A DNA stretch of 33,082 nt from a virus. Lineage: Duplodnaviria > Heunggongvirae > Uroviricota > Caudoviricetes. Position numbers and translations under genes: made by a program. Where the stretch lies: the IMG/VR virus record IMGVR_UViG_3300020050_015720, one strand, 5' to 3'. Below the pieces are notes generated by a model. It was not told where the DNA came from. It ran no database searches and saw only the letters and a list, made by a program, of their open reading frames with translations. Positions 1,549-22,009 of the stretch are shown one piece after another. Position 1 is the first letter of the stretch. Each line of letters begins with the position of its first letter.

Positions 1549-1579
1549 TTGCATCCACGTATTTATTGTCGTATCTTTG
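1549..1579 (+). promoter_or_regulatory. Bacteroidota primary-sigma promoter (-33 TTG, 20-nt spacer, -7 TATCTTTG) upstream of tRNA-Ile
   Basis: TTG 1549-1551; TATCTTTG 1572-1579 matches the TAnnTTTG consensus. Confidence 0.8.
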
Positions 1580-1618
1580 TAGCTCCTCGATAGAGGAATA
1601 CAAATTATTTGTACCACT

Positions 1619-1780
1619 GGCGGGATAGCTTAGCGCCGTTGTCTGATAAAGCGGTCAATGCTTTCATAAGTATATCGGTATTAAGGCCTTAGAAAGATTC
1701 TAGACTCTATTTCTAAGAGGCAAGGTTAAAGCACCACTCTTATATGGTGGAGATCGTAGGTTCGAATCCTACTCCCGCAA
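1619..1780 (+). tRNA. trnI: tRNA-Ile(UAU) with ~88-nt structured insertion in the D-loop
   Basis: Acceptor GCGGGA 1620-25/TCCCGC 1773-78 (first pair imperfect), A73; D-stem GCTT 1628-31/AAGC 1729-32; anticodon stem CCACT/GGTGG with loop CTTATAT (TAT 1741-43); variable AGATC; T-arm GTAGG-TTCGAAT-CCTAC; CCA not encoded. Confidence 0.8.
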
Positions 1781-1961
1781 CGAAAAAAAATTTAACATGA
1801 ATAATAAACTTATTAATATTGTGGGCGACTACGCATGAGCAAATCCTGACGTAGACTTCAACACCATCCTAGAACGACTCTCACTCACCAGAAAAGTTCT
1901 ATTCGCAAATAGGTATAGTACAAGTAAGGAAACTACGTTCACGGATAACAAAATTAATAGT

Positions 1962-2298
1962 ATGAAAGTAATAGTAGCAGGGTCCAGATCGTTTGACGAC
2001 CAGGCGTTAATGGATACACCAAATAAAGTCTTTTGGATTAGAGGAAATAGTTTCAGGACATGCCAAAGGAGCTGATTCTCTTGGAGAACAAGCAGCAGCT
2101 AATCAGGATATAAAACTTAAGATATTCCCAGCTAATTGGAATCTTCATGGAAAGGCTGCCGGACACATTAGAAATAGAGAGATGGCAAATTATGCGGATG
2201 CTGCCATAGTTTTCTGGGATGGTAAGTCGTCTGGATCTAGGAATATGATTGAAGAGATGGTTTCAATAAAGAAACCAGTACTTATAGTGTCATTTTAA
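1962..2298 (+). pseudogene. SLOG/DUF2493 (YspA-like) protein split by a +1 frameshift near 2031-2034
   Basis: MKVIVAGSRSFDD in one frame; EIVSGHAKGADSLGE...GKAAGHIRNREMA...IVFWDGKSSGSRNMI in the +1 frame; absent from the ORF track. Confidence 0.75.
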
Positions 2299-3932: not shown

Positions 3933-3976
3933 AAATAGATAGGGCTATAAAAAAAAACTTTTTTTTGCCAAAAAAC

Positions 3977-4007
3977 TTGACATTTGTTTTTAAATGTTGT
4001 ATCTTTG
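3977..4007 (+). promoter_or_regulatory. Bacteroidota-type promoter
   Basis: TTG 3977-79, 20-nt spacer, TATCTTTG 4000-4007. Confidence 0.85.
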
Positions 4008-4025
4008 TGGTAAATTACAAATAAG

Positions 4026-6794: not shown

Positions 6795-7055
6795 GGGGAT
6801 GCCTGGCTTTGATTAGGATCGGCGCATCGAAATTAGGACTCAGGTCGTCATTGACGTTAAACACTTTTAAATATAAATGACAACTCATTTGAGCCCGCAC
6901 TTTTAGTGCCAAAGAACTCTACCCGCTTTGTTCCTCAAGAGGTAGAAATTGAAGTAGTTAGTACAGTTTACGCTTAGATAGCAATATCTTAAAACCTGTA
7001 ATACTGTCCTATTTTGATGGATTCTAAAACGCGAGTTCGACTCTCGCCATCTCCA
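6795..7055 (+). ncRNA. ssrA: tmRNA (compact, ~261 nt)
   Basis: Acceptor GGGGATG/CATCTCC with G3-U70 wobble and A73; T-arm GCGAG-TTCGACT-CTCGC; TATAAATG resume motif; tag ORF 6879-6977. Confidence 0.9.
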
Positions 7056-7179
7056 AGCGAAATATCATAGATAAACTAGCGCCACACTATTATATGTGGA
7101 ATATATTACCTGGGACCTTTGGGGGCACCGCTGTAAAGTAGGGCCCCTACCCCCAGGCACTCATTTTGAGTTTTAACAC

Positions 7180-7276
7180 AGGGGGGTTTATTCGTTAGGA
7201 GACGAAAGCAAACTTCAAATTTGCGGAAGCTGGTGTCCAAAACCAGATGATACGGGTTCGAGTCCTGTCCCCCTTG
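7180..7276 (+). tRNA. trnW: tRNA-Trp with two tandem anticodon arms (UCA and CCA)
   Basis: Acceptor AGGGGGG/CCCCCTT, G73; arm 1 GCAAA-CTTCAAA-TTTGC (TCA 7215-17); arm 2 CTGGT-GTCCAAA-ACCAG (CCA 7237-39); ATGAT; T-arm ACGGG-TTCGAGT-CCTGT. Confidence 0.85.
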
Positions 7277-7506
7277 CAAAGGCCTGCCCAAGGCCCACTA
7301 TTCAAATAAGCATGATAGTAAGTGTGTCCTGTAAAAAGGAACGCCGGACTTCCCGTCCTCACGTTTAAATAACAATGGGAAAGAAATAAAAGTCTCGAAG
7401 AAACCATAGCTTAGACTATGAATACATACCTTGTGTGGGGAAAGAACACCCTAAGAGAGACGTAACAACACGACTATAATGTTACAAGGTTTGATGTCGT
7501 TGGTTT

Positions 7507-7769: not shown

Positions 7770-7934
7770 ATGAGATTAGAATTAAATATATACAACGAAG
7801 GAACATTGATGTCCCATCTTTCTAGATCTATCACCATATCTGAATATCAGATGAAGTCTTATGAGAATATCTATCATTATCTAACTGTAAATCTTCCTTT
7901 ATTTTATGATGTGAGTAAAAACAACAATGCTTAG
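7770..7934 (+). CDS. Small hypothetical protein (54 aa)
   Basis: Manual translation MRLELNIYNEG...; stop overlaps the next ATG. Confidence 0.5.
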   Translation: MRLELNIYNEGTLMSHLSRSITISEYQMKSYENIYHYLTVNLPLFYDVSKNNNA

Positions 7935-8217
7935 GACTCATGATGAGACTGGGCAAGATCATTCGCAGTTATATGAGATTCCGTTTTATTTTGATCTGTC
8001 TAGAGTCGTTTCAATGCGACCCTTAGAAGAGAAAGAACTTCCAATAAAGTTTCGAAGAAAAACAGCCATTACATTTGGAACTGAGGCAGAAGAATATTAT
8101 ATAAAAGCATCAATAGAAACATTACTAAAATTATTAGGTGGGTCTGATGGTGGTATACAAGTTCAGGAGTTACCTGAAGATACTCCAGTAGCTCCAATCC
8201 TATCTACTCAATTATAA
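7927..8217 (+). CDS. Hypothetical protein
   Basis: ORF track. Confidence 0.7.
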   Translation: MLRTHDETGQDHSQLYEIPFYFDLSRVVSMRPLEEKELPIKFRRKTAITFGTEAEEYYIKASIETLLKLLGGSDGGIQVQELPEDTPVAPILSTQL

Positions 8218-9083: not shown

Positions 9084-10647
9084 AGAAGTAACACAAGATA
9101 AACTATTGCAAGGAGCTAAAACTATTGCTGATATAGTAGGGTCTACCTTAGGCCCAATGGGTAAGAATGTGATTATAGAGACTCAATATGGTGCTATTAC
9201 TGTAACAAAGGATGGTATCACGGTTGCCTCTCATGTAACCTTGGAAGATCCAACAGAGAATATGGCTGCGTCTATTATCAGACAGGCCGCTGATAAGACT
9301 GCCACTCTTGCTGGTGATGGTACAACTACTTCAACAGTAATTGCCGCCGCCTTAGTAAAGCAAGCACTTAAACTAGTTAAGCTTGGTTATCAACCTATTG
9401 ATATAAAGCGTGCTTTTGAGCAGCTCTTGCATAAAACAAGGTTATCATTAACCAAGAAGGCATCTCCTGTTGATTCTGAAGATATATTAAAGATCGCTAC
9501 AATCTCAGCAAATAATGACGAAGTTATTGGCGGCTTAATTCACTCAGCTTTTGAGTATGTTGGCAAGGAAGGCCTAATCACTCTGGGAGATTCTAAGACC
9601 GGTAGAACAGAAGTAGAATTAGTTCCTGGAGTATCTATAAACAAAGGCTTTGCTTCTCCATATTTTATTACTGATTCAGCAAAAGGAGAAGCAGTATTAG
9701 AAAAGCCACTTATTTATATAACTGACAATAAACTACGTACGCTGGAAGATGTTGTTCCTATACTAGAGATGGCACATGAACAGAAGAGATCCCTCTTAAT
9801 TCTTTGTGATTCTATAGATGGACATGCACTTCAGATTTTGGCTGTAAATAAACTCAAAGGAACTGTTAGAGTAGCAGCTGTTGAAGGACCTTCATTTGGA
9901 GAGAATCGAGCTGAACTTTTAAAAGATCTTGCGGCTCTTACTTCAGCAAAAATTCTAAGTAACAATGCGCCAAACTCAGATTTTGGTAAGCACTACTTAG
10001 GAAGAGCTGAAAAGATAATAGTAACAAAAGATAAGACTATTTTTGTAGAACCAGTCCGAAATGAAGCTGAGATAGAAGATCGAGTAAAGATTGTTCAAGA
10101 GCATTTGGCTAACAGTGAAAATGCTTACATGACAACTCAGTATCAGAAACGGTTAGCAGATCTAAATGCAAAAGTAGCATCTATTAATGTTGGGGCTCCC
10201 ACCGAGACAGAACAAAAAGAAGTAAAGGATAGAGTAGATGATGCTCTTAGAGCTACCTCAGCAGCTGTTGCTAAAGGTTACTTGTTAGGAGGTGGTACTG
10301 CTCTTTTATGGGTAGCAGAAGAACTCCAATCGGATAATCCTATCACACAAGCTTTTACAGACGCATTAAAAGAGCCTCTTAGGGTTATTATAAATAATGC
10401 TGGTAGGAATGCTGAGGCAATCATAGAAAAAATCACAGACAAAAATGATCCTGAGTATGGATATAATGCTAGGACATTAGAATTTGACAATTTAAAGACC
10501 AGAGGAATTATTGATCCTTTATTAGTCGTAGAACAGGCGGTCACAAACGCTGTTTCAGCAGCAAACATGTTGATCTTATCAGATGTTGCGCTAACTAATT
10601 TGGATAGAACTCCTCCATATTCTCCTCCGGCTATGGACTATGCTTAA
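9052..10647 (+). CDS. groEL: Chaperonin GroEL (Cpn60)
   Basis: TLGPMGKNVII, ITVTKDGITVA, AGDGTTTSTV, GGGTALL and GIIDP motifs; 531 aa. Confidence 0.97.
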   Translation: MSMPIKEISYKEVTQDKLLQGAKTIADIVGSTLGPMGKNVIIETQYGAITVTKDGITVASHVTLEDPTENMAASIIRQAADKTATLAGDGTTTSTVIAAALVKQALKLVKLGYQPIDIKRAFEQLLHKTRLSLTKKASPVDSEDILKIATISANNDEVIGGLIHSAFEYVGKEGLITLGDSKTGRTEVELVPGVSINKGFASPYFITDSAKGEAVLEKPLIYITDNKLRTLEDVVPILEMAHEQKRSLLILCDSIDGHALQILAVNKLKGTVRVAAVEGPSFGENRAELLKDLAALTSAKILSNNAPNSDFGKHYLGRAEKIIVTKDKTIFVEPVRNEAEIEDRVKIVQEHLANSENAYMTTQYQKRLADLNAKVASINVGAPTETEQKEVKDRVDDALRATSAAVAKGYLLGGGTALLWVAEELQSDNPITQAFTDALKEPLRVIINNAGRNAEAIIEKITDKNDPEYGYNARTLEFDNLKTRGIIDPLLVVEQAVTNAVSAANMLILSDVALTNLDRTPPYSPPAMDYA

Positions 10648-12895
10648 AGCAACAGATGTGGTAATCAAAGATATACCACAATACCACCCCCTCTCGGTGG
10701 ATTACAAAAATTTTTGGAGAGAACAAAGAAGAAAGTGTATTGAAGGTGCTTGGGCCAGTGGGATGTATATTCCGCCGGCCCTTTACTATTATGTAAACTT
10801 TCATACTATACGACTGAATAAGAAAGGATCAGCCTTAAAGACCTTTGATCGGCCCTGGTTAAGGGATGTTGAGTATAGATTCTTTAATTACTATACTGAG
10901 GCTAGGGGTTTCTCTGGATTTGCTGATGACGATGAATATTCATCAAATGTAATATTGTTAGACGAAGATATAACGGATGATATATTGATGTTGTATCACC
11001 CTAATACTATGTCATCCTCGACAGGCCAAAGGAAAACATATGTCCCAGCTAGAAAGGCTTTGTTCCAAACTTATGAACAACCTCTTGGAAGGGCGTTATT
11101 TGAGAACCCATTGCAGAATTTCATGCTATTAGGCTCCCGTGAGTCCGGCAAGTCTTACATGGTTTCAAGTTTAATTGGGCATAATTTTTTAATGGATGGT
11201 GCAACTGTCTATAATGAATTTACTCGTAAATATCCCGATCCAGTCGAACTCTTAGTAGGAGCTGAAAAGTCGGACAGATCCGCCGATCTATTAAAAAAGG
11301 TTAGAGACGCTTTTGACCAGTTACCAGGAAAACAGTCTTTGCATGATCGTACATACCCATCCCCATTCTCCAAAAGATATAAGGGATCTTGGGAAGTAAA
11401 TAAGGAGATCATTGCCGAATATAAAAAGAAGGAGCAAGGAGCCTGGGAAGTATCGGGCTCTAAATCATCTATAAAGCATAGATCTTTCGCAGCTAATTCC
11501 TTTGCAGCACAAGGTACTCGTCCACTACTACTAGTTTTAGAAGAAGCGGGTATGTTTAGTGGCCTAAAAGATGTGTATGCCAACACTGTGGATAACCTTA
11601 GAAACGGCCTACGAAAGACAGGCATGCTTATGATGCTTGGTACCGGTGGTGACATGACCCGTGGTACTTTAGATGCCGCCGAGATGTTTTATGAACCAGA
11701 TAAATATGGTATATTAGCTTTTGAAGATACTTGGGAGCACAGAGGTAAGATAGGTTATTTTCTTCCAGCTTATGAAGTACTCAATGAATATAAGGACCCA
11801 GAAACAGGTGTGTCTAATATAGATGCAGCGAGAAAGGCCCTTATAAATGTAAGAAAAAAGAAAGCTGGAGATTCTGGTGGGTCTGAAGCACTAAACAAGG
11901 AAATGCAATATCGTCCTATTGTGCCTTCCGAAATGTTCTTAACTAAGACAGCTAACATATTTCCTACGGCTGAATTAAGGCGACGATTGTCTGAGATTCA
12001 AACCCACAAAATGCAGGATTACTTAGAAAAGAAGGCAGTCCTATATTTTGACCCAGACGCCAAAGTTTATAATGGAGTAAACTACGAGATTAATGAAAAA
12101 CTCACAGCCATCAACAAGTTTCCTTATGAAGGCGAAGAATTAGAAGGAGCGGTTATACTGTATGAACTTCCAAAACTTATAGACAGTGCTGTGCCAAAAG
12201 ACGCCTATATAATAGGGTGTGACCCCTATAAAGATGATGGGCAAAGTGGAACTTCTTTAGCCTCTATATATGTTATCAAGACAAACAAGTACCCATCAAC
12301 TGTCGGATTCTCTGAGATAGTTGCGACCTACATAGGGCGCCCTTACCTTGGTAAAAATCAAGTGAACGAAATTCTCTATAAACTCTCTCTTTTCTATGGA
12401 AATGCAAAGATATACTTTGAGAATAACGTAGGTAACGTAAAAGATTATTTTGAGAAGATAAGACGTTTAGACCTCCTAGCCAGACAACCAGTTACGATAT
12501 TTAATCGAAAGGCTGCTTTTGAGGGATCTCCTCAAGTAGTCTATGGGTATCCATTATCAAACGATAAAGTAAAATGGGAGGCCCTTCAATATGTTAGATC
12601 TTTCTTACTAGAGGATCGAGGAGATGGAAAAAGAAATTTGGATTTAATACCAGATCCAGCACTATTACAAGAATTAATAGCTTACAACTTAGACGGTAAC
12701 TTCGACCGCGTTTCATCCCTTATAGGATGTATCTTAGGACTAGAAGAGTTATCAAATTTAGAGCAACGTAAGGTTTTTCACCAGGCAGAGTTTTCTCAGT
12801 TAGAAAAAGACCTTGATCGGCTTATTATAAATAATAATAGATTATTTAATGTTCAATTTACCCAAACAACGACAGTCCTACGAAGCGAAGTCTAA
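10640..12895 (+). CDS. terL: Terminase large subunit, crAss-like
   Basis: Walker A GSRESGKS, Walker B LLVLEEAG, GTGG motif, nuclease IIGCDPY and FDRVSSL; directly upstream of portal. Confidence 0.93.
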   Translation: MLKATDVVIKDIPQYHPLSVDYKNFWREQRRKCIEGAWASGMYIPPALYYYVNFHTIRLNKKGSALKTFDRPWLRDVEYRFFNYYTEARGFSGFADDDEYSSNVILLDEDITDDILMLYHPNTMSSSTGQRKTYVPARKALFQTYEQPLGRALFENPLQNFMLLGSRESGKSYMVSSLIGHNFLMDGATVYNEFTRKYPDPVELLVGAEKSDRSADLLKKVRDAFDQLPGKQSLHDRTYPSPFSKRYKGSWEVNKEIIAEYKKKEQGAWEVSGSKSSIKHRSFAANSFAAQGTRPLLLVLEEAGMFSGLKDVYANTVDNLRNGLRKTGMLMMLGTGGDMTRGTLDAAEMFYEPDKYGILAFEDTWEHRGKIGYFLPAYEVLNEYKDPETGVSNIDAARKALINVRKKKAGDSGGSEALNKEMQYRPIVPSEMFLTKTANIFPTAELRRRLSEIQTHKMQDYLEKKAVLYFDPDAKVYNGVNYEINEKLTAINKFPYEGEELEGAVILYELPKLIDSAVPKDAYIIGCDPYKDDGQSGTSLASIYVIKTNKYPSTVGFSEIVATYIGRPYLGKNQVNEILYKLSLFYGNAKIYFENNVGNVKDYFEKIRRLDLLARQPVTIFNRKAAFEGSPQVVYGYPLSNDKVKWEALQYVRSFLLEDRGDGKRNLDLIPDPALLQELIAYNLDGNFDRVSSLIGCILGLEELSNLEQRKVFHQAEFSQLEKDLDRLIINNNRLFNVQFTQTTTVLRSEV

Positions 12896-15260: not shown

Positions 15261-15294
15261 GGCTATAACAAAAAATCGAAAGTTTGTAAAAAAC

Positions 15295-15325
15295 TTGACA
15301 AAAAATTTTAAATTTCGTATCTTTG
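15295..15325 (+). promoter_or_regulatory. Bacteroidota-type promoter for the scaffold/MCP operon
   Basis: TTG 15295-97, 20-nt spacer, TATCTTTG 15318-25. Confidence 0.85.
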
Positions 15326-15326
15326 T

Positions 15327-16346
15327 ATGCAAAATAATGATGATTTTCTAGCTACGATGCTAGCAGACACACCACCAGTAGAACCTGTGCCACCAGCTGA
15401 TCCTCAAGACATTGATATTGTGGATTCTCCACCTACCGATCCTGAAGAGGCTGTCGTTGAACCCCCTGAAGAAGGAGATGCTCAACTTCAAGCCTATGTT
15501 GAATTTTTGACCGAAAATGAGTTAGTAGAGCTTCCTGAAAACTTTGAGTTTAAAGGAACACCAGCTGAGTTAGAGACTATATTTTCCTACACAAAACAAC
15601 GTCAGGTTGAAAAAGCAGCTGAAGCACTAGCAGCCTCTCTTCCTCAAGAGTTCAAGTCTGTATTAGACTACGCTCTAAACGGTGGACAGGATATCAAATC
15701 TTTTCTTGAAAGGTATGGTGTCGATCCTCTAATGAACGTAGATCTAACGACTACTGATGGACAAAAAGAGGCAGTATTTTTAGCACTAAAGAAAACGTCT
15801 AATTACTCTGACGAACGCATAAATAAAATAGTTGAACGGTTAGCTGAAGTTCCAGAAGATCTAGCTGAGGAGGCAAATCTTTCTTATGCAGAACTTCAGG
15901 AATTACGAAAACAAGAGCAAGATGCAGAATTACTTTCATTGAAAGAAAGTGATAGAATAGCTCGTGAAAAAGCTGAGGCAAAAACACAAGCATTGGCTGC
16001 GGCGATTGAATCTTCCCCAAGCGTTCATCCACAACGAAGAAATAAGGTCAAAGCATTTTTCTTTGATCCAATAAATACTCCTTCTGGAGTTAGTACTGGC
16101 TTTAACCAAGCCATCAATTCTATTTTAGCTAATCCTGAGCATCAGGCCCAACTAGCTGATCTATTACTGGAATACGATCCTTCAGCAGGCTTCTCTTTAG
16201 AGAGGCTTGAGCGTAAGGTGAAAACAAAAGCAACCCAACAATTCCAAGAAGCCTTAAGTAGGACTCTTGACCCAAAACAGGCCCAACGTGCCTCAACAAA
16301 ACCTCCACAGACTAATACCGATGATTCTGTTCTGTGGAACTTATAA
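15327..16346 (+). CDS. Acidic scaffold-like protein between portal and MCP (conserved position in crAss-like phages)
   Basis: Pro/Asp/Glu-rich N-terminus and coiled-coil middle; position in the module. Confidence 0.7.
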   Translation: MQNNDDFLATMLADTPPVEPVPPADPQDIDIVDSPPTDPEEAVVEPPEEGDAQLQAYVEFLTENELVELPENFEFKGTPAELETIFSYTKQRQVEKAAEALAASLPQEFKSVLDYALNGGQDIKSFLERYGVDPLMNVDLTTTDGQKEAVFLALKKTSNYSDERINKIVERLAEVPEDLAEEANLSYAELQELRKQEQDAELLSLKESDRIAREKAEAKTQALAAAIESSPSVHPQRRNKVKAFFFDPINTPSGVSTGFNQAINSILANPEHQAQLADLLLEYDPSAGFSLERLERKVKTKATQQFQEALSRTLDPKQAQRASTKPPQTNTDDSVLWNL

Positions 16347-16351
16347 TAACT

Positions 16352-19300
16352 ATGGCAAATCCTCAATCTTCCTTAATCATTAAACAGTGGGATTCCTTTG
16401 GAGGTTCCTTCATTGATTCCGATTATTTGGCGCAGGCCTATGACGGTGGCAAACCATCTTACCTGCCAGGAGCTCTTATGAAAATCTTTTCATCTGGTTC
16501 CGACTTTTTTAAAATTAAACCCTTCCTTAGCCTTACTGGCATGGGAACAAACGGAGGTCTCGAAGTTGAAAGTGAAGTAGTTCGCTGGAGGCTTCAAGGT
16601 GCAGAGCGCAAATCAGCTCGTGTACTTGAAAATGTAGAGGCTTCAAATCTGACTCCAGGTTTGAATCAAACACCTTTCCGTGTTAAATTAGATCTTGATT
16701 ACTATCAGCATCCTGATGTTATCCAAGGTGAAGACAATGACTTCAACCTTCAGGTAATGGATAAGATTACTGATGGTACTGGAACTATCTATACTCTTCG
16801 TATTTTGACTGATGATCCAACTAAATTCTTGGATCCTAAGTATCTTTCTGCGGGTCGTGCTTTTGATAAAGTATCAACAGCCGTTGCCTCTGAAGCAAAC
16901 GGAGTATTCGGTACCCAACAGTACCCAAACATCTTTGAACTTGCTAGCCAATTAGGCGCTTTTGCTCAGAAGATCGAAGTAACCGATAAGGCTTAACTTT
17001 AGGCCCTTTATATAGAAATATATATCGAAGAAGTTTCTTAATTGCTGGAAACCCCTAAAGACTTAGGTACTTTACAAGTAACAATCCTAAGTATGAAACA
17101 ATGGGCAATCAGCAGCTAAATTATAAAATGGAACATCTACCAAAAACAAAAGGAGATTGGACTTTACTAAGAATTGTAAAGAATAAGCTAGGCAGGGCTA
17201 AACTTAGATTGCAGTGTAAATGTGGAGTTCAAAGAACAGTTGACAAATGAGATTACCTAAATCTCGGAAAAATATCTGAGAAATTAAATTTAGGTTTTTC
17301 ATGCGCAAAATGTGCACACAAACTCTACTGGGCAAACAAAGAGAGCAAAGAGCTCTATAAGCTAATTCATATGGATTACGCTCAGCAAGCAAAAAGGAGA
17401 AATATACTTTTCAATCTAACACAAGAGGAAAGTTATCAATTGTTTACATCTTCTTGCCATTATTGTGGAGTACAGCCCGCGAATATCAAAAAACATGGTA
17501 GAAACAAACAAATCTCTTTCGCGTATCAGGGAATAGATCGAGTAGATCCAAACAAAGGTTATACTCACGATAACGTTCTTCCGGCTTGTCGGCACTGTAA
17601 CTACGCGAAAAGAGAAATGACTTACCTTGAGTTTATATCTTGAGTAAGTACTGTCCATTATAATTTAGTTCAACGACTATCCCCCAAAGGGAGTAGGGCC
17701 AAGTGGTCCGAAACAGAAACCTCCTCTTCTCAGGAGATGATATAGTCTGTTCTCATGGGAAACCATGAGCCGTTTATAAATTTGCCAGTTTATAACGAGA
17801 ATAGTGTAACGAACTATTCTGAACAAAAAGTGGAGACAACAAGGCCGCCTTGGCTTTGAATTCCTTGGCACCGATCCTAATGGTTCTACCAAAACCGTAT
17901 CTAAGTTCCTTCCATATGCTGAAGCTATGATGGTTGATGAACTTTACAAATCCATGGAGTGGGCACTGGTTTACGGTGAAAAATCTACTCTTAAGGGTCC
18001 AGACGGTTACTGGCAAAAAACAGGTCCTGGTGTACGCCAACAATTGAAAGATTCTTGGATTCAGTATCTCAATGGTCCTATTACTGTAAATCTTCTTCAA
18101 GATTTCTTGTTGAACATTTTCTTTGGCCGCACTGACGAAGCAAATCGTGGAATCACAATGATAAACTACCCGTTGTCTCGTGTAATAGTAATATTGCATT
18201 AGAAAACCTTTCTATATGCTGGAAACTCTTAAAGGTTTAGTTCCTATTATAATAGGTGCGAAAGCAGAAACAATACTAAACATTAGCTATGATGAAAAAT
18301 TCTAAGGCCGAAGTAATAGACAATCAGCAGATAACTATAATCAATACATATCTAAAAATAAGATCAATCTCAGGAACAGCAAGAGAACTACGACTCCCTT
18401 ACAGGGCTGTCAATAGAGTTCTTGTTCAGTCAAAATTAGCTGGAATTAAACGAAAGCAAAAAACCAGAACTCTTCAGATTGATTATTTCAAAGAGATCAA
18501 TACGCCGGAGAAAGCCTATTTTTTAGGATTACTTCACGCAGATGGATCCATTGTAAAAAGAACCAATGCAGATAAGTTTAATATGACTATCTCCCTGCAC
18601 GAGCAGGACAAAAAGATACTACTGCGTTTTGCTCAGTGTATTAACCTAGAGCCAGAGAGAGTCACTGCAAATCCCCAACTACGAGGTAGTTTGCAATATA
18701 AAATATCCATTGGTATTCAAGAGTTTATAGAGCCTATTTTAACATTAAAATCTCCGGAGATTTTAAATAAGCTTCCAAGTAATATGTATTCGCATTTTAT
18801 TCGTGGAGTATTTGATGGTGATGGGTCTATTTACAATCATAAAAGTCACGGTGGTAAACAATATTATTACTATGCAAGCTTTATTGGTTACACATGATTA
18901 TTGAATTGAATTCAAGAGGTGTGCCCAGTTAAAGCATCAAAAATCCGAACAACAAAACATAACGGAATTTCGCGCATAGAATATTTTAGCCAAAATGATT
19001 TATTGGACTTGGAAAACTTTCTTTACAAAGACTCAACTGTGCACCTTGATCGAAAGTACTCAAAATTTTTAGATATGAAATTGAATTATAGCATCTCAAC
19101 GACTAAACGAAAGGCGTCCCAACTTAAAAAAGCGGACGATGATATAGTCTAATCTCATTAGAGATAATGAGTTAATAATATGGACGGGACAACTTGGTCA
19201 GCTACTGTTCCACAACGCACTTGTCGCTGTTGCTAATGGTTTCTTGACCGTTGATTCACACTTCGTACGTTCTGCTTCTAATCCTGGTTCTTCTACTCCT

Positions 19301-19705
19301 GGTCTTGCTTATGGCGCTCAATTTGTAGAATACACAGGGCCACTTGGAATCAAGATTCGTCTTGTACACAATCCAATGTACGATTCTTTGCAGTATTGCA
19401 AACGTATGCACCCGCTTTATCCAAATATGCCTATTGATTCAGCTCGTATGACTTTCTTGAATATTGAAGGTCGCGGTGTTGAAACAGCACAAGGACTTGG
19501 CAAGAATCTTGAACTCTTGAAAGTAAAAGATACTTTCCGTTACTTCTATGTACCTGGATCCGTTACTCCAATGGGCCCAATTACAGGAAAAGGATTCGCG
19601 GTAACAGCTAAAGCTGGTTACAGTGTTCACATTGAGGGTACTTTAGGTGCCATCATTCGTGATGTAACTTCTTGCGGAGAGCTCATCACAGATTTCGAAG
19701 GATAG
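16352..19705 (+). CDS. Major capsid protein (~498 aa) in three exons: 16352-16993, 17831-18162, 19183-19705
   Basis: Joined reading ...EVTDKA|WRQQGRLGF...NRGITMM|TGQLGQLLFHNAL...GELITDFEG; crAss-type MCP features; ATG 16352 preferred over track GTG 16334. Confidence 0.88.
16994..17830 (+). mobile_element. Group I intron 1 in MCP (837 nt)
   Basis: 5' exon ends in U; P1 AAGGCU with GGCCCU (U-G wobble at G17002); P10 CUUUA with UGGAG; TGCTGGAAAC, GCAATCAGCAG, GTTCAACGACT and GATATAGTCT core elements; terminal G at 17830. Confidence 0.88.
17128..17745 (+). CDS. Intron-encoded HNH-type homing endonuclease (205 aa with TGA=Trp at 17248 and 17641)
   Basis: CKCG, CAKC, CHYCG and GIDRVDPNKGYTHDNVLPACRHCNYAK; C-terminal YLEFIS(W)V matches the family Trp position. 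Confidence 0.85.
18163..19182 (+). mobile_element. Group I intron 2 in MCP (~1020 nt; 5' splice site could alternatively follow 18159)
   Basis: TGCTGGAAAC, GACAATCAGCAG, TCAACGACT and GATATAGTCT core; P9 CTCATTA-GAGA-TAATGAG; P10 CCCGTT with exon GACGGG; terminal G at 19182. Confidence 0.85.
18289..19152 (+). CDS. Intron-encoded LAGLIDADG homing endonuclease (287 aa with TGA=Trp at 18895 and 18907)
   Basis: KAYFLGLLHADGSI and HFIRGVFDGDGSI motifs; track ORFs 18289-18897 and 18919-19152 share a frame; reads FIGYT(W)LLN(W)IQEV. Confidence 0.88.
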
Positions 19706-19706
19706 T

Positions 19707-20042
19707 ATGAATTTAGAAGCCCAACTTGGTATAAAGTTGTCGGTTCTAGTGGCAGGATTAATTGGGGGTATTGTCTCATTAACATATGAGACAAAACTCT
19801 CGTTTATGAGAGCGCTTCTATTGATAATAGGAGGAGCCTCTACGGCTGCTTATTTACACCCACTAACAGAACATTACCTTGGACTAGATAATAAATTTTC
19901 ATCTGGTGTTGGGTTTGTTCTAGGATTAGTTTCAATGAAAGTTATTAACTTTTTAATAGCTAATACTGAGGTGGTATTGCAAAAATACTTAACAATAAAT
20001 GGAAATACTCAACGCAATAGTGGTGACACTGAGCTCGATTAG
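19707..20042 (+). CDS. Putative holin (multi-TM membrane protein)
   Basis: LSVLVAGLIGGIVSL...GGASTAAYLHPL...VGFVLGLVSM pattern typical of phage holin-like proteins. Confidence 0.65.
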   Translation: MNLEAQLGIKLSVLVAGLIGGIVSLTYETKLSFMRALLLIIGGASTAAYLHPLTEHYLGLDNKFSSGVGFVLGLVSMKVINFLIANTEVVLQKYLTINGNTQRNSGDTELD

Positions 20043-20247
20043 TACAGTGTTCTTGTTGCAGGAGAAACTCTTAAGCTTGGGTAATACTAAAACGCTCTCT
20101 TTTTGGGAGATGCAGTCACTGAGAGGGCTGATAGCAACAACAAATGCAGCCCAACTAGCTACGATACTTACATCCATAACCTTTCCTGTATTGTTATTGA
20201 ATGCAACACTAGCACTAACTAAACTCTTCTTAATAAAGAAATTATAA
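19999..20247 (+). CDS. Small membrane protein (possible second lysis component)
   Basis: Several hydrophobic segments; overlaps the holin gene. Confidence 0.55.
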   Translation: MEILNAIVVTLSSISTVFLLQEKLLSLGNTKTLSFWEMQSLRGLIATTNAAQLATILTSITFPVLLLNATLALTKLFLIKKL

Positions 20248-20249
20248 TA

Positions 20250-20280
20250 TGGTCTCCACAGGAGATCAGACTTTTTGTTT
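20250..20280 (+). terminator. Possible intrinsic terminator
   Basis: TGGTCTCC-ACA-GGAGATCA followed by GACTTTTTGTTT. Confidence 0.45.
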
Positions 20281-20303
20281 AATGCAAATAAAAGGAAAAT
20301 TAA

Positions 20304-21284
20304 ATGTCAAAATTAGTATTTGTAATGTCTATTCCAAGAGCTACAACTTCTGGAATATCGGATTGGGTTTCAGAAACCTCAGGGTTAAAGCTCAAGAAAA
20401 CAAAAGTAGGACGTTCACAAGACATATTGGTAGCCCTTCCCTCAGCTAAGGTTGGGGGATTGGCTAACTTTATCTCCTACAATTATAAGATAGACCCTGC
20501 TACGGGGAAGGCCGAACTAGATAAGGATGGTAATCCTATTTTATTGCAAACCTATCTAGAAACAAAGTGGAATAAGCCAAAAGACTTTTTTTCAAATAAA
20601 CTTGTCGAAGCAAATTACAAGGGAGACGGAAGAGATCTAGGTTATTATTACAATAAGTCTTGGCCCCTGCTAGATGGCACCACTGTTTTTGATTTAGATA
20701 AGATGGATGACGAAATAGGATACTATGTCCTATTAGCTTCTTCAAAAGTTGCCAACTCGGAAAGGGAGTGGCGAGAACATAGGTGGCCAAAAGCTACTCA
20801 TTATATTGCACTTGAAAATGAAAGCGATGCTCTAAAGTATCAAAGAGCAAAGGCAAAAGCTAATGCTGTTTCTGCCCTCGCTGCTTCAGGAATGAATGAA
20901 ACAACCAGAGCTAAAATTTTGGTATTATTAGATATATCTAATTCTACTGATAAGCTATCGGCTGAACAATCATTTAATTTCTTATTTGATTACATAGAAA
21001 ACGCTAGTAGCACAAATACTAATCTAGAAAAATTTAACCACTACTGCGACCTCTTAAAGAGCGCCGAAGGAAAGGTTAGATTTGAAACTATGTACTTATT
21101 GAAACAGGCTCAGAATCTTCGAATTGTCTATGCTAAACAAGATATTTGGACATGGATACGCGAAAGTGGGGCTACTCTTGTAATTGGAGATAAATACTCC
21201 GAGGCCGTTGACTTCTTATTAAATCCAAAGAAATTGGACGAAATAGAAGAACTACGAAATCAAATTAAAGCCAAAAAAGGCTAA
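20304..21284 (+). CDS. Conserved crAss-like protein downstream of MCP
   Basis: 326 aa; position and DGTTVFDL/ATHYIALENE-type motifs. Confidence 0.65.
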   Translation: MSKLVFVMSIPRATTSGISDWVSETSGLKLKKTKVGRSQDILVALPSAKVGGLANFISYNYKIDPATGKAELDKDGNPILLQTYLETKWNKPKDFFSNKLVEANYKGDGRDLGYYYNKSWPLLDGTTVFDLDKMDDEIGYYVLLASSKVANSEREWREHRWPKATHYIALENESDALKYQRAKAKANAVSALAASGMNETTRAKILVLLDISNSTDKLSAEQSFNFLFDYIENASSTNTNLEKFNHYCDLLKSAEGKVRFETMYLLKQAQNLRIVYAKQDIWTWIRESGATLVIGDKYSEAVDFLLNPKKLDEIEELRNQIKAKKG

Positions 21285-22009
21285 TGGCATCAATAAAAGA
21301 ACTACACTACCACTTTAAACTAAATATGGATAGAGTAGATTCTTTAGCAAATCCAGACTTAAATCCCTTAGAAATAGACTTGCTTCTAAATGAAGCACAG
21401 TTAATTTTTATAAAGCAAAGAATGGGGTTAAACAACTCTAAGAAAGCGGGCTTCGAAACTTCTCAAAAAAGAATTGATGACCTTGCTAACTTAGTAGTTA
21501 AATATCCTCTTCAACCTCATATGACTCCTGTTGAAATATCAACAGGGCTCTATGAAGTAGATTTGACAAAGACAGTACTACCCTATCTTTTTTTAGTAAA
21601 TGCGTACGCATTAGTTGAAGAAAGCGAAGACTGCACTCGAAGAGTTAATTTAAAGTTCACCCAACATGATGACTTTAATGAGACGCTACGAGACCCCTTT
21701 AATAAGGCTTCGAAAGTTTCAATTCCGTACAATTTTGGAAGAAACTCTACTAATACAGGTTCTTCCATGTATCTTTATACAACACAAGTAGTTACTTCGG
21801 TAGCCCTTGAGTATGTAAAACTTCCATCAAAAGTCTCTTTAGGGACTTATACTTACATGGATGGCTTAGTATATCCGGCAAAAAGTTTTGAAACAGCAGA
21901 GCATACACACTTGGAAATAGTGGATATTGCTTGCCAATTAGCTGCTAGGAATATTGAGAATCCAGAATACATTAGTGTTCGAGACCAAAAGACACTAATA
22001 CATGAATAA
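21284..22009 (+). CDS. crAss-like tail ring/connector protein
   Basis: ELHYHFKLNMDRVDS...EIDLLLNEAQLIFIKQR...FETSQKRIDDL...EYVKLP...HLEIVDIACQLA. Confidence 0.7.
   Translation: MASIKELHYHFKLNMDRVDSLANPDLNPLEIDLLLNEAQLIFIKQRMGLNNSKKAGFETSQKRIDDLANLVVKYPLQPHMTPVEISTGLYEVDLTKTVLPYLFLVNAYALVEESEDCTRRVNLKFTQHDDFNETLRDPFNKASKVSIPYNFGRNSTNTGSSMYLYTTQVVTSVALEYVKLPSKVSLGTYTYMDGLVYPAKSFETAEHTHLEIVDIACQLAARNIENPEYISVRDQKTLIHE

Follow-up and report, generated by a model that had tools for sequence, protein, structure and literature searches.

Intervening sequences are known from bacterial and phage tRNA genes in the form of group I introns, which interrupt the anticodon loop, are at least 200 nt long and carry a catalytic core. 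In archaea, tRNA introns also occupy non-canonical positions, the D-loop included (Aeropyrum pernix, PMC3241643); they are cut at bulge-helix-bulge motifs and their removal restores a standard tRNA. Reading of AUA with anticodon UAU, independently of TilS, was described for the bacterial-type tRNA-Ile2 of Mycoplasma mobile, a tRNA of normal size; there a change in isoleucyl-tRNA synthetase (IleRS; Arg865) solves the charging of UAU (Taniguchi et al. 2013, PMC3575796). For phage tRNA(UAU) genes that show GAU in an additional arm, considered below, the closest published counterpart is the group of allo-tRNA(UAU) molecules (Mukai et al. 2017, PMC5389517), allo-tRNAs having 8/4 or 9/3 acceptor/T branches. 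Here we analyse a tRNA-Ile(UAU) gene with a large D-loop insert, located at positions 1619–1780 of a 33,082-nt stretch of phage DNA (Caudoviricetes; IMG/VR record IMGVR_UViG_3300020050_015720), hereafter the window.

Once ~90 nt are looped out, positions 1619–1780 form a tRNA-Ile(UAU) cloverleaf of bacterial type, as had been proposed from the letters alone (the original prediction), with its parts lying where that prediction had placed them (Table 1). We found the 7-bp acceptor stem, the D, anticodon and T arms and the 7-nt anticodon loop with U33 that are typical of an RF00005-type cloverleaf; the D-loop as encoded is 97 nt long and falls outside the 7–11 nt that are the norm for tRNAs of the bacterial elongator type in that family. 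The insert is bordered by G15 (1633) on the 5′ side and by G18 (1724) on the 3′ side. Bdellovibrionota have cellular CAU tRNAs that share this D arm, and in these the D-loop reads AG-YU-GGUUA; the insert therefore sits at positions 16/17, in the length-variable stretch 5′ of G18 G19. The nucleotides of the tertiary core are all kept: U8 (U1626), A14 (A1632), the G15:C48 pair (G1633/C1755), G18 G19 (G1724 G1725) and the T-loop TTCGAAT (1761–1767).

On the intact sequence ARAGORN did not report the gene, and the Rfam tRNA model matched positions 1716–1780 only, with 30.2 bits at a threshold of 29. After in silico deletion of 1634/5–1722/3 ARAGORN called tRNA-Ile(tat), 73–77 nt long and with a normal D-loop. 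Since standard tRNA finders miss such a gene, the AUA-decoding capacity of such phages is likely to be under-annotated. Nucleotides A73, U12-A23 and A37 fit the isoleucine identity rules of Escherichia coli; the pairs C4-G69 and C29-G41 are absent. The possibility of an initiator tRNA was ruled out, as the molecule has neither the three G-C pairs of the anticodon stem nor A11:U24.

Table 1. Features of the tRNA-Ile(UAU) locus, of the rest of the window and of related contigs (window coordinates unless a contig is named)
Feature	Position	Strand	Details
5′ tRNA part	1619–1633	+	acceptor strand GGCGGGA, U8 A9, D-stem strand GCUU, A14 G15; same in all homologues
Acceptor stem	1619–1625 / 1773–1779		GGCGGGA / UCCCGCA; six Watson-Crick pairs and a G1.A72 mismatch
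D stem	1628–1631 / 1729–1732		GCUU / AAGC; A14 G15 at 1632–1633
Insert	1634–1723	+	~90 nt, at D-loop positions 16/17
3′ tRNA part	1724–1780	+	G18 G19 UUA (1724–1728), D-stem strand, anticodon arm, variable loop, T arm, acceptor strand, A73
Anticodon arm	1734–1750		CCACU-CUUAUAU-GGUGG; anticodon UAU
Variable loop			AGAUC
T arm	1756–1772		GUAGG-UUCGAAU-CCUAC
Discriminator	1780		A1780 (A73); CCA not encoded
Hairpin 1 of the original prediction	1636–1654	+	CCGUU/AGCGG, 9-nt loop GUCUGAUAA, GAU at 1645–1647; sequence invariant in three lineages
Hairpin 2 of the original prediction	1658–1673	+	AUGCU/AGUAU, loop UUCAUA; CAU at 1665–1667
Hairpin 3	1686–1721	+	GCC-UUAGAAA ... UUUCUAA-GA-GGC; ~10 bp, 2-nt bulge, 14-nt loop
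Promoter-like element	1562–1581	+	ends in TATCTTTG (1573–1580), TAnnTTTG type; ~40 nt 5′ of the tRNA start
Leader hairpin	1583–1598	+	CUCCUC-GAUA-GAGGA, between promoter and tRNA; stem invariant, both changes of the L047 lineage in the loop
Promoter-like repeat copies	3970–4009; 15288–15327		families D13/D14 at 3990–4009 and 15308–15327
tRNA(UCA)	7180–7277	+	98 nt; discriminator G; long extra arm with loop GUCCAAA (Trp anticodon CCA)
tRNA(UCA) homologues	L047:6985–7080; L052:8130–8225; L062:7811–7909; L064:9145–9240
Terminase/capsid regions	10640–12895 and 16334–19300; L052:11589–14975 and 18432–21596

The 162-nt gene was found in three lineages of one narrow clade of crAss-like phages: the window itself, a second lineage with 4 differences from it (L052/L054; ENA ERZ2270725, Logan ERR3573297) and a third with 10 differences (L047/L048 and an IMG/VR copy; JGI 3300020049, 3300020046). 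As these are independent assemblies, the architecture is not an assembly artefact. Beyond them, exact and gapped DNA patterns retrieved from IMG/VR only the one known relative, a scan of metagenomes for homologues returned only tandem tRNA pairs, and no homologue of the gene was found among deposited phage genomes. The original prediction had envisaged a comparison of homologues with and without the insert; the insert-bearing form was seen in all three lineages, and no insert-less allele was found in the IMG/VR, metagenome or deposited-phage searches. An IMG/VR scan for inserts of 18–48 nt at the same spot of the D-loop, made with the commonest D arm, gave only partial tRNA duplications.

Compared with the window, the insert has changed at 2/90 and 5/90 positions in the two other lineages (7/180 together) and the exons at 2/72 and 5/72, while the 79 nt just upstream of the gene differ at 13/79 and 15/79 positions (28/158 together). 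Genome-wide DNA identity between the window and the L047 lineage is ~70–79%; at 20% divergence the probability of five or fewer differences in 90 positions is 1e-4. The insert and the exons thus evolve at a similarly slow pace, and this speaks for a function at the sequence level. In the tRNA body, the T stem GUAGG/CCUAC of the window reads GCAGG/CCUGC in L047, a compensatory change from U-A to C-G, and the U31.G39 pair of the anticodon stem is a U-A pair in L047. The double change in the T stem, together with the change in the anticodon stem, shows that the tRNA body was kept functional while carrying the insert; maintenance of a helix by compensatory change is read here from one double change only, in a set of three lineages that have diverged by 2.5–7% across the gene. 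From these comparisons we conclude that the gene is a real tRNA gene under selection rather than a pseudogene, and that the insert is selected and conserved rather than random sequence.

It should be kept in mind that tRNA cassettes recombine in these phages: L052 is window-like overall and carries an L047-type allele of another tRNA gene, tRNA(UCA). Part of the high identity may therefore come from recent exchange rather than from constraint. Still, the promoter region, which belongs to the same block, diverges faster, and this speaks against recent exchange as the only cause. One could carry the argument further and suppose that a tRNA gene was recently disabled by a chance insertion, that the motif CUGAUAA in the insert (see below) is a coincidence and that conservation reflects recombination between lineages. 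This would agree with the exchange of cassettes, with the unexceptional folding energy of the insert and with the narrowness of the clade; the gene was not found within 10 kb upstream of GroEL in five relatives (L050, L051, L062, L063 and L064) whose GroEL is 55–64% identical. Yet the compensatory change in the T stem arose after a lineage split with the insert present on both sides, within that conserved block the flanks have accumulated changes at four times the rate of the insert, the promoter has been kept, and the insertion lies exactly at the one D-loop spot that spares every nucleotide of the core. We regard a disabled gene as quite improbable.

The anticodon itself differs between lineages. 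It is UAU in the window and in L052 and CAU in L047; either can read AUA, CAU by way of lysidine conversion. The natural reading of these sequences is that a gene of tRNA-Ile2 type (CAU, lysidine-dependent) acquired UAU by one transition, or that the change went in the reverse direction. Codon usage agrees with the original prediction that AUA codons are common: in 37 open reading frames (ORFs) of the window AUA makes up 40% of the Ile codons, ~26 per 1000 codons, so a tRNA for AUA would be useful to the phage.

Another use of the RNA has to be weighed at this point, one that is not, or not mainly, decoding. The tRNA half would provide stability and processing, and the insert would serve, for instance, as a regulatory small RNA or would sequester, as a decoy or sponge, some anticodon-loop-binding protein of the host, such as an anticodon nuclease or a modification enzyme. 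It is in line with this that conservation at the locus is highest in the insert, that several aberrant tRNA-like genes and a transfer-messenger RNA (tmRNA) are found in these phages, and that elongator tRNAs do not usually have a G1.A72 mismatch. On the other hand, the replacement of CAU by UAU is the one anticodon change after which AUA is still read, given lysidinylation of C34; with the anticodon stem kept paired, it fits selection on decoding, AUA is heavily used, and the tertiary-core bases of a translating tRNA are all in place. We consider a non-decoding role unlikely.

The original prediction divided the insert into three hairpins. Pair probabilities, computed with the cloverleaf forced, bear this out for the third, which is the most stable predicted element (0.46–0.70) and is part of the minimum-energy fold in the window and in L052; in the cloverleaf-forced fold of L047 the region is broken into smaller hairpins. 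Hairpins 1 and 2 form in a minority of the ensemble only. For hairpin 1 the probability is 0.13–0.55 (∼0.15 in the window and in L052, 0.55 in L047), for hairpin 2 it is 0.12–0.22, while a competing long irregular hairpin (1635–1638:1676–1679, 1640–1644:1669–1674 and 1648–1653:1659–1664) reaches ~0.8 in the window and L052. The six variable columns of the insert give no clean covariation for any helix, nor do the four variable sites that fall in hairpin 3. The folding energy of the insert taken alone is unremarkable (z of –1.4 against shuffled sequences).

The motif CUGAUAA, the exact loop of tRNA-Ile(GAU), is indeed present at 1643–1649, as had been noted, and occurs by chance in 0.9% of insert shuffles. 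As to a discrete stem-loop that would show GAU, the pairing probability is as given above, the loop of hairpin 1 would be of 9 nt and not 7, and its stem is without covariation in the three lineages. Nucleotides G1645, A1646 and U1647 are predicted to be mostly unpaired in both competing folds. The motif is invariant in the three lineages, which are too little diverged for invariance to weigh much. Its companion in the original prediction, a CAU in the loop of hairpin 2, exists in the window and is not conserved, UUCAUA being replaced by UAUAUA in L047. The picture of one gene with all three anticodons used for Ile holds only in part: the coincidence is an accident of this window, as the CAU loop is not kept and L047 has CAU as its decoding anticodon.

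Extra elements of a comparable kind occur in other phage tRNAs. A pattern search of IMG/VR, in which the loop CUGAUAA was required, gave at least 15 well-formed tRNA(UAU) genes with this loop in the variable arm, on arm stems of varying sequence. When genes were selected solely by UAU and a long variable region, GAU was found in the arm loop of 14 of the 19 distinct genes; in eight of these 14 the loop reads CAGAUUA. A further 97-nt tRNA(UAU) gene, at 7932–8028 of IMGVR_UViG_3300002052_000476 (L020), has a perfect CCACU-CUGAUAA-GGUGG arm in the D-loop, 3′ of GG. The stem of that arm has the same sequence as the genuine anticodon stem in the window tRNA.

An element of this kind is also found in the window, in the tRNA(UCA), which has a Trp anticodon in its long extra arm. 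Throughout its homologues UCCAA is kept in the extra-arm loop, and the arm stems differ by lineage and still pair (CUGGU/ACCAG, GCUGA/UCAGC, CUGGAG/CUUCAG and GAUCC/GGAUC); these stems were read by eye, the aligner having left that arm unresolved. Covariation was detected for 16 of the 22 predicted pairs, each of which belongs to one of the four standard stems (acceptor, D, anticodon or T). A discriminator G fits the Trp identity rules. Phage tRNAs with unusual anticodons, this phage included, thus have a genuine, selected design in which an additional element displays the amino acid's standard anticodon. By analogy, such a display may have arisen a third time, at another place of the tRNA, in the GAU segment of the insert. 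In the literature we found no description of such arms, nor of a large insert in the D-loop of a bacterial or phage tRNA.

The differences from these elements are considerable. The long-variable-arm tRNA(UAU) genes share with the window gene the UAU anticodon arm and a GAU in a second segment; they are 89–102 nt long with one hairpin of 4–6 bp in the variable region, whereas the GAU of the window lies in the D-loop, within a 90-nt domain where the hairpin form is not the favoured fold. Unlike the allo-tRNAs, the window tRNA has a 7/5 acceptor/T arrangement. The L020 gene is alike in having its extra GAU element in the D-loop rather than in the variable region, but there it is one clean arm of 5 bp and 7 nt on the 3′ side of GG, while the window insert lies 5′ of G18 G19 and is four times longer. 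The sequences are unrelated and the two elements appear to have independent origins. With tRNA-Ile2 of M. mobile the window tRNA shares UAU for AUA, the bacterial type, A73 and the same charging problem; it differs in the 90-nt insert, in a host IleRS that is presumably unadapted and in a sister lineage with CAU.

Tentatively, we favour retention of the insert and presentation of its GAU to an enzyme that reads anticodons. A working phage tRNA for AUA would be transcribed from its own promoter in the early region of a crAss-like phage of Bacteroidota, and positions 16/17 of its D-loop, a length-tolerant and solvent-facing site, would have been expanded by a selected, structured RNA domain of 90 nt. 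At least the first part of this domain would stay in the mature tRNA and display an unpaired GAU, the ordinary tRNA-Ile anticodon; on the most economical view the partner would be an anticodon-reading enzyme of the host, first of all IleRS, which would cope poorly with the real anticodon of this tRNA and would find in GAU an element that it recognises. In favour of this reading are the intact core, the conservation of gene and insert, the usage of AUA and the mostly unpaired GAU. To these come the parallel with extra arms elsewhere, GAU-bearing in other phage tRNA-Ile(UAU) genes and CCA-bearing in the tRNA(UCA) of this phage, and the biochemical logic, given that E. coli IleRS charges tRNA-Ile(UAU) poorly (PMC3575796). 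A bolder version, to which we give little credence, holds that the unpaired GAU is a pseudo-anticodon recruiting host IleRS in the mature, translating tRNA, as the CCA arm would recruit the tryptophanyl enzyme TrpRS; it would be a general way to part loading from codon reading that evolved independently at the variable arm, in the D-loop 3′ of GG and at D-loop positions 16/17.

Several points count against a retained insert that displays GAU, besides the possible contribution of recent exchange. We know of no precedent for a 90-nt domain at the tRNA elbow, and it could clash with contacts that the ribosome, EF-Tu and RNase P make at the D/T-loop corner. A loop attached at the elbow is far from the anticodon contact of IleRS on a normally docked tRNA. 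The hairpin that would hold GAU is a minority fold in the window (0.15), with the oversized loop mentioned above, and the insert helices lack covariation in lineages as few and as close as these. In L047 the decoding anticodon is CAU and the GAU segment is still kept, so the segment is not tied to UAU. Finally, hairpins 2 and 3, two thirds of the insert, are not explained by display of GAU.

Alternatively, and this is possible if doubtful, the insert could represent a new type of intron-like element. Protein enzymes would cut near 1633/1634 and 1723/1724 and ligation would yield an ordinary tRNA-Ile(UAU) of ~75 nt, the conserved sequence serving recognition by the processing machinery or being released as a small RNA. 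Removal of the insert does give a textbook tRNA, as the ARAGORN call showed, and a 90-nt elbow domain may not fit the ribosome. The unconstrained minimum-energy fold, 5.4 kcal/mol more stable than the cloverleaf-constrained one, pairs CUUAG of the exon (1629–1633) with UUAAG of the insert (1681–1685) and displaces the D stem; pairing of this kind between exon and insert is seen in precursors. The clade, moreover, is rich in intervening sequences, LAGLIDADG-bearing inserts interrupting the terminase and capsid genes of relatives.

Against excision it counts that no known system fits. A brute-force search of junctions found no bulge-helix-bulge motif (two 3-nt bulges and a 4-bp helix) at positions that would yield a tRNA; the original prediction had likewise seen none. 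In this the insert departs from the archaeal introns, and the host is bacterial, as indicated by the promoter motif, the tmRNA and the crAss-type capsid. No match to group I introns, group II introns or small ribozymes in Rfam was obtained at E<=10 in 1400–2000, nor at gathering score in the window; with its 90 nt and its place in the D-loop the insert also differs from group I introns in size and position. To our knowledge bacteria have no tRNA-splicing endonuclease, and we know of no bacterial system that splices D-loop inserts. Neither RtcB nor an Rnl2-type ligase was found in an 89-kb relative (G001, 89% complete; the search did not extend to T4 Rnl1-type ligases), though a Bacteroides host has RtcB (control genome). 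The insert has no ORF and is not tRNA-shaped. No insert-less allele turned up in the searches described above, and no other copy of the insert was found in the window, in the loci examined or in the phage collection, which leaves no sign of mobility. Conservation at least equal to that of the exons would be odd for a passive intron.

Some specific origins of the insert were rejected. A mobile element, whether similar to miniature inverted-repeat transposable elements or the remnant of a homing endonuclease, was rejected, as there were no other copies in the material just named, no terminal repeats and no ORF. A tRNA-shaped insert cut out by RNase P and RNase Z would need an acceptor-like closing stem and a T-loop, which are lacking, and the UUCAUA loop is not kept. 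A fusion of tandem tRNA-Ile(GAU) and tRNA(CAU) genes would leave a matching 3′ acceptor strand after hairpin 2, and there is none.

The likelihood of each competing reading was judged separately, and together they are not intended to add up to one. Each outcome would be new among bacterial-type tRNAs. If the insert is retained, no tRNA D-loop would have a larger natural expansion, and the gene would test how much bulk at the elbow RNase P, EF-Tu and the ribosome tolerate. If it is excised, a route of tRNA splicing would exist in bacteria or phages outside the anticodon loop and with neither a ribozyme nor a bulge-helix-bulge. If GAU recruits IleRS, the element would join the CCA arm of tRNA(UCA), phages would be seen to load tRNAs for rare codons and stop codons through a second, standard anticodon, and a ready-made design for genetic-code engineering would be at hand.

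The window belongs to a crAss-like phage. It encodes GroEL, the large terminase and the portal; its relatives have capsid genes that match the Crass_capsid Pfam family, on contigs of ~100 kb. The tRNA-Ile(UAU) gene is the first of the rightward early region. The promoter-like element ahead of it is of the type TAnnTTTG, the –7 consensus of Bacteroidota, and is conserved in the homologues; judging by this element, the tRNA gene has its own promoter of Bacteroidota type. A promoter-like repeat with a –7 box of this type (AAAAAACTTGACA ... TTAAAT.T.GTATCTTTGT) occurs ahead of the tRNA gene, of ORF 4026 and of ORF 15327.

Stop codons of the 37 window ORFs are distributed as TAA 27, TAG 8 and TGA 2; TGA is nearly avoided in a phage that carries a tRNA(UCA), and the large late genes of the window are open under the standard code. 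Downstream of the tRNA-Ile(UAU) gene, at 1960–2295 (+), a homologue of a 197-aa YAcAr-family protein (L048:39–632) is split across two frames near 2010–2020; a frameshift, an error in sequencing or programmed slippage could each account for this. Reading of TGA as Trp in this gene was ruled out, the break being a frameshift and not a TGA.

The phage-encoded tmRNA lies at 6795–7056 (+) of the window (Rfam, 53.4 bits), where ARAGORN missed it; ARAGORN did find the homologues in L002/L047 and L064, whose tag peptides end in VYA. Aberrant tRNA-like genes are present in relatives (L051:7011–7106, 7150–7250 and 7330–7420; L310:1383–1450 and 1501–1578, in G001). Among them are a ‘tRNA-Lys(UUU)’ of 96 nt that has G33 and an extra arm of 6 bp, a tRNA(UCA) whose T arm is odd, and a tRNA-like gene in which the anticodon is ACC. 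As to the LAGLIDADG-bearing inserts, the terminase gene is whole in the window and is split by one of them in L052, a relative of 93–96% identity. In L052, L053 and L063 the gene for the crAss-type capsid is broken up, LAGLIDADG ORFs lying between the pieces, and the copy in the window also looks fragmented.

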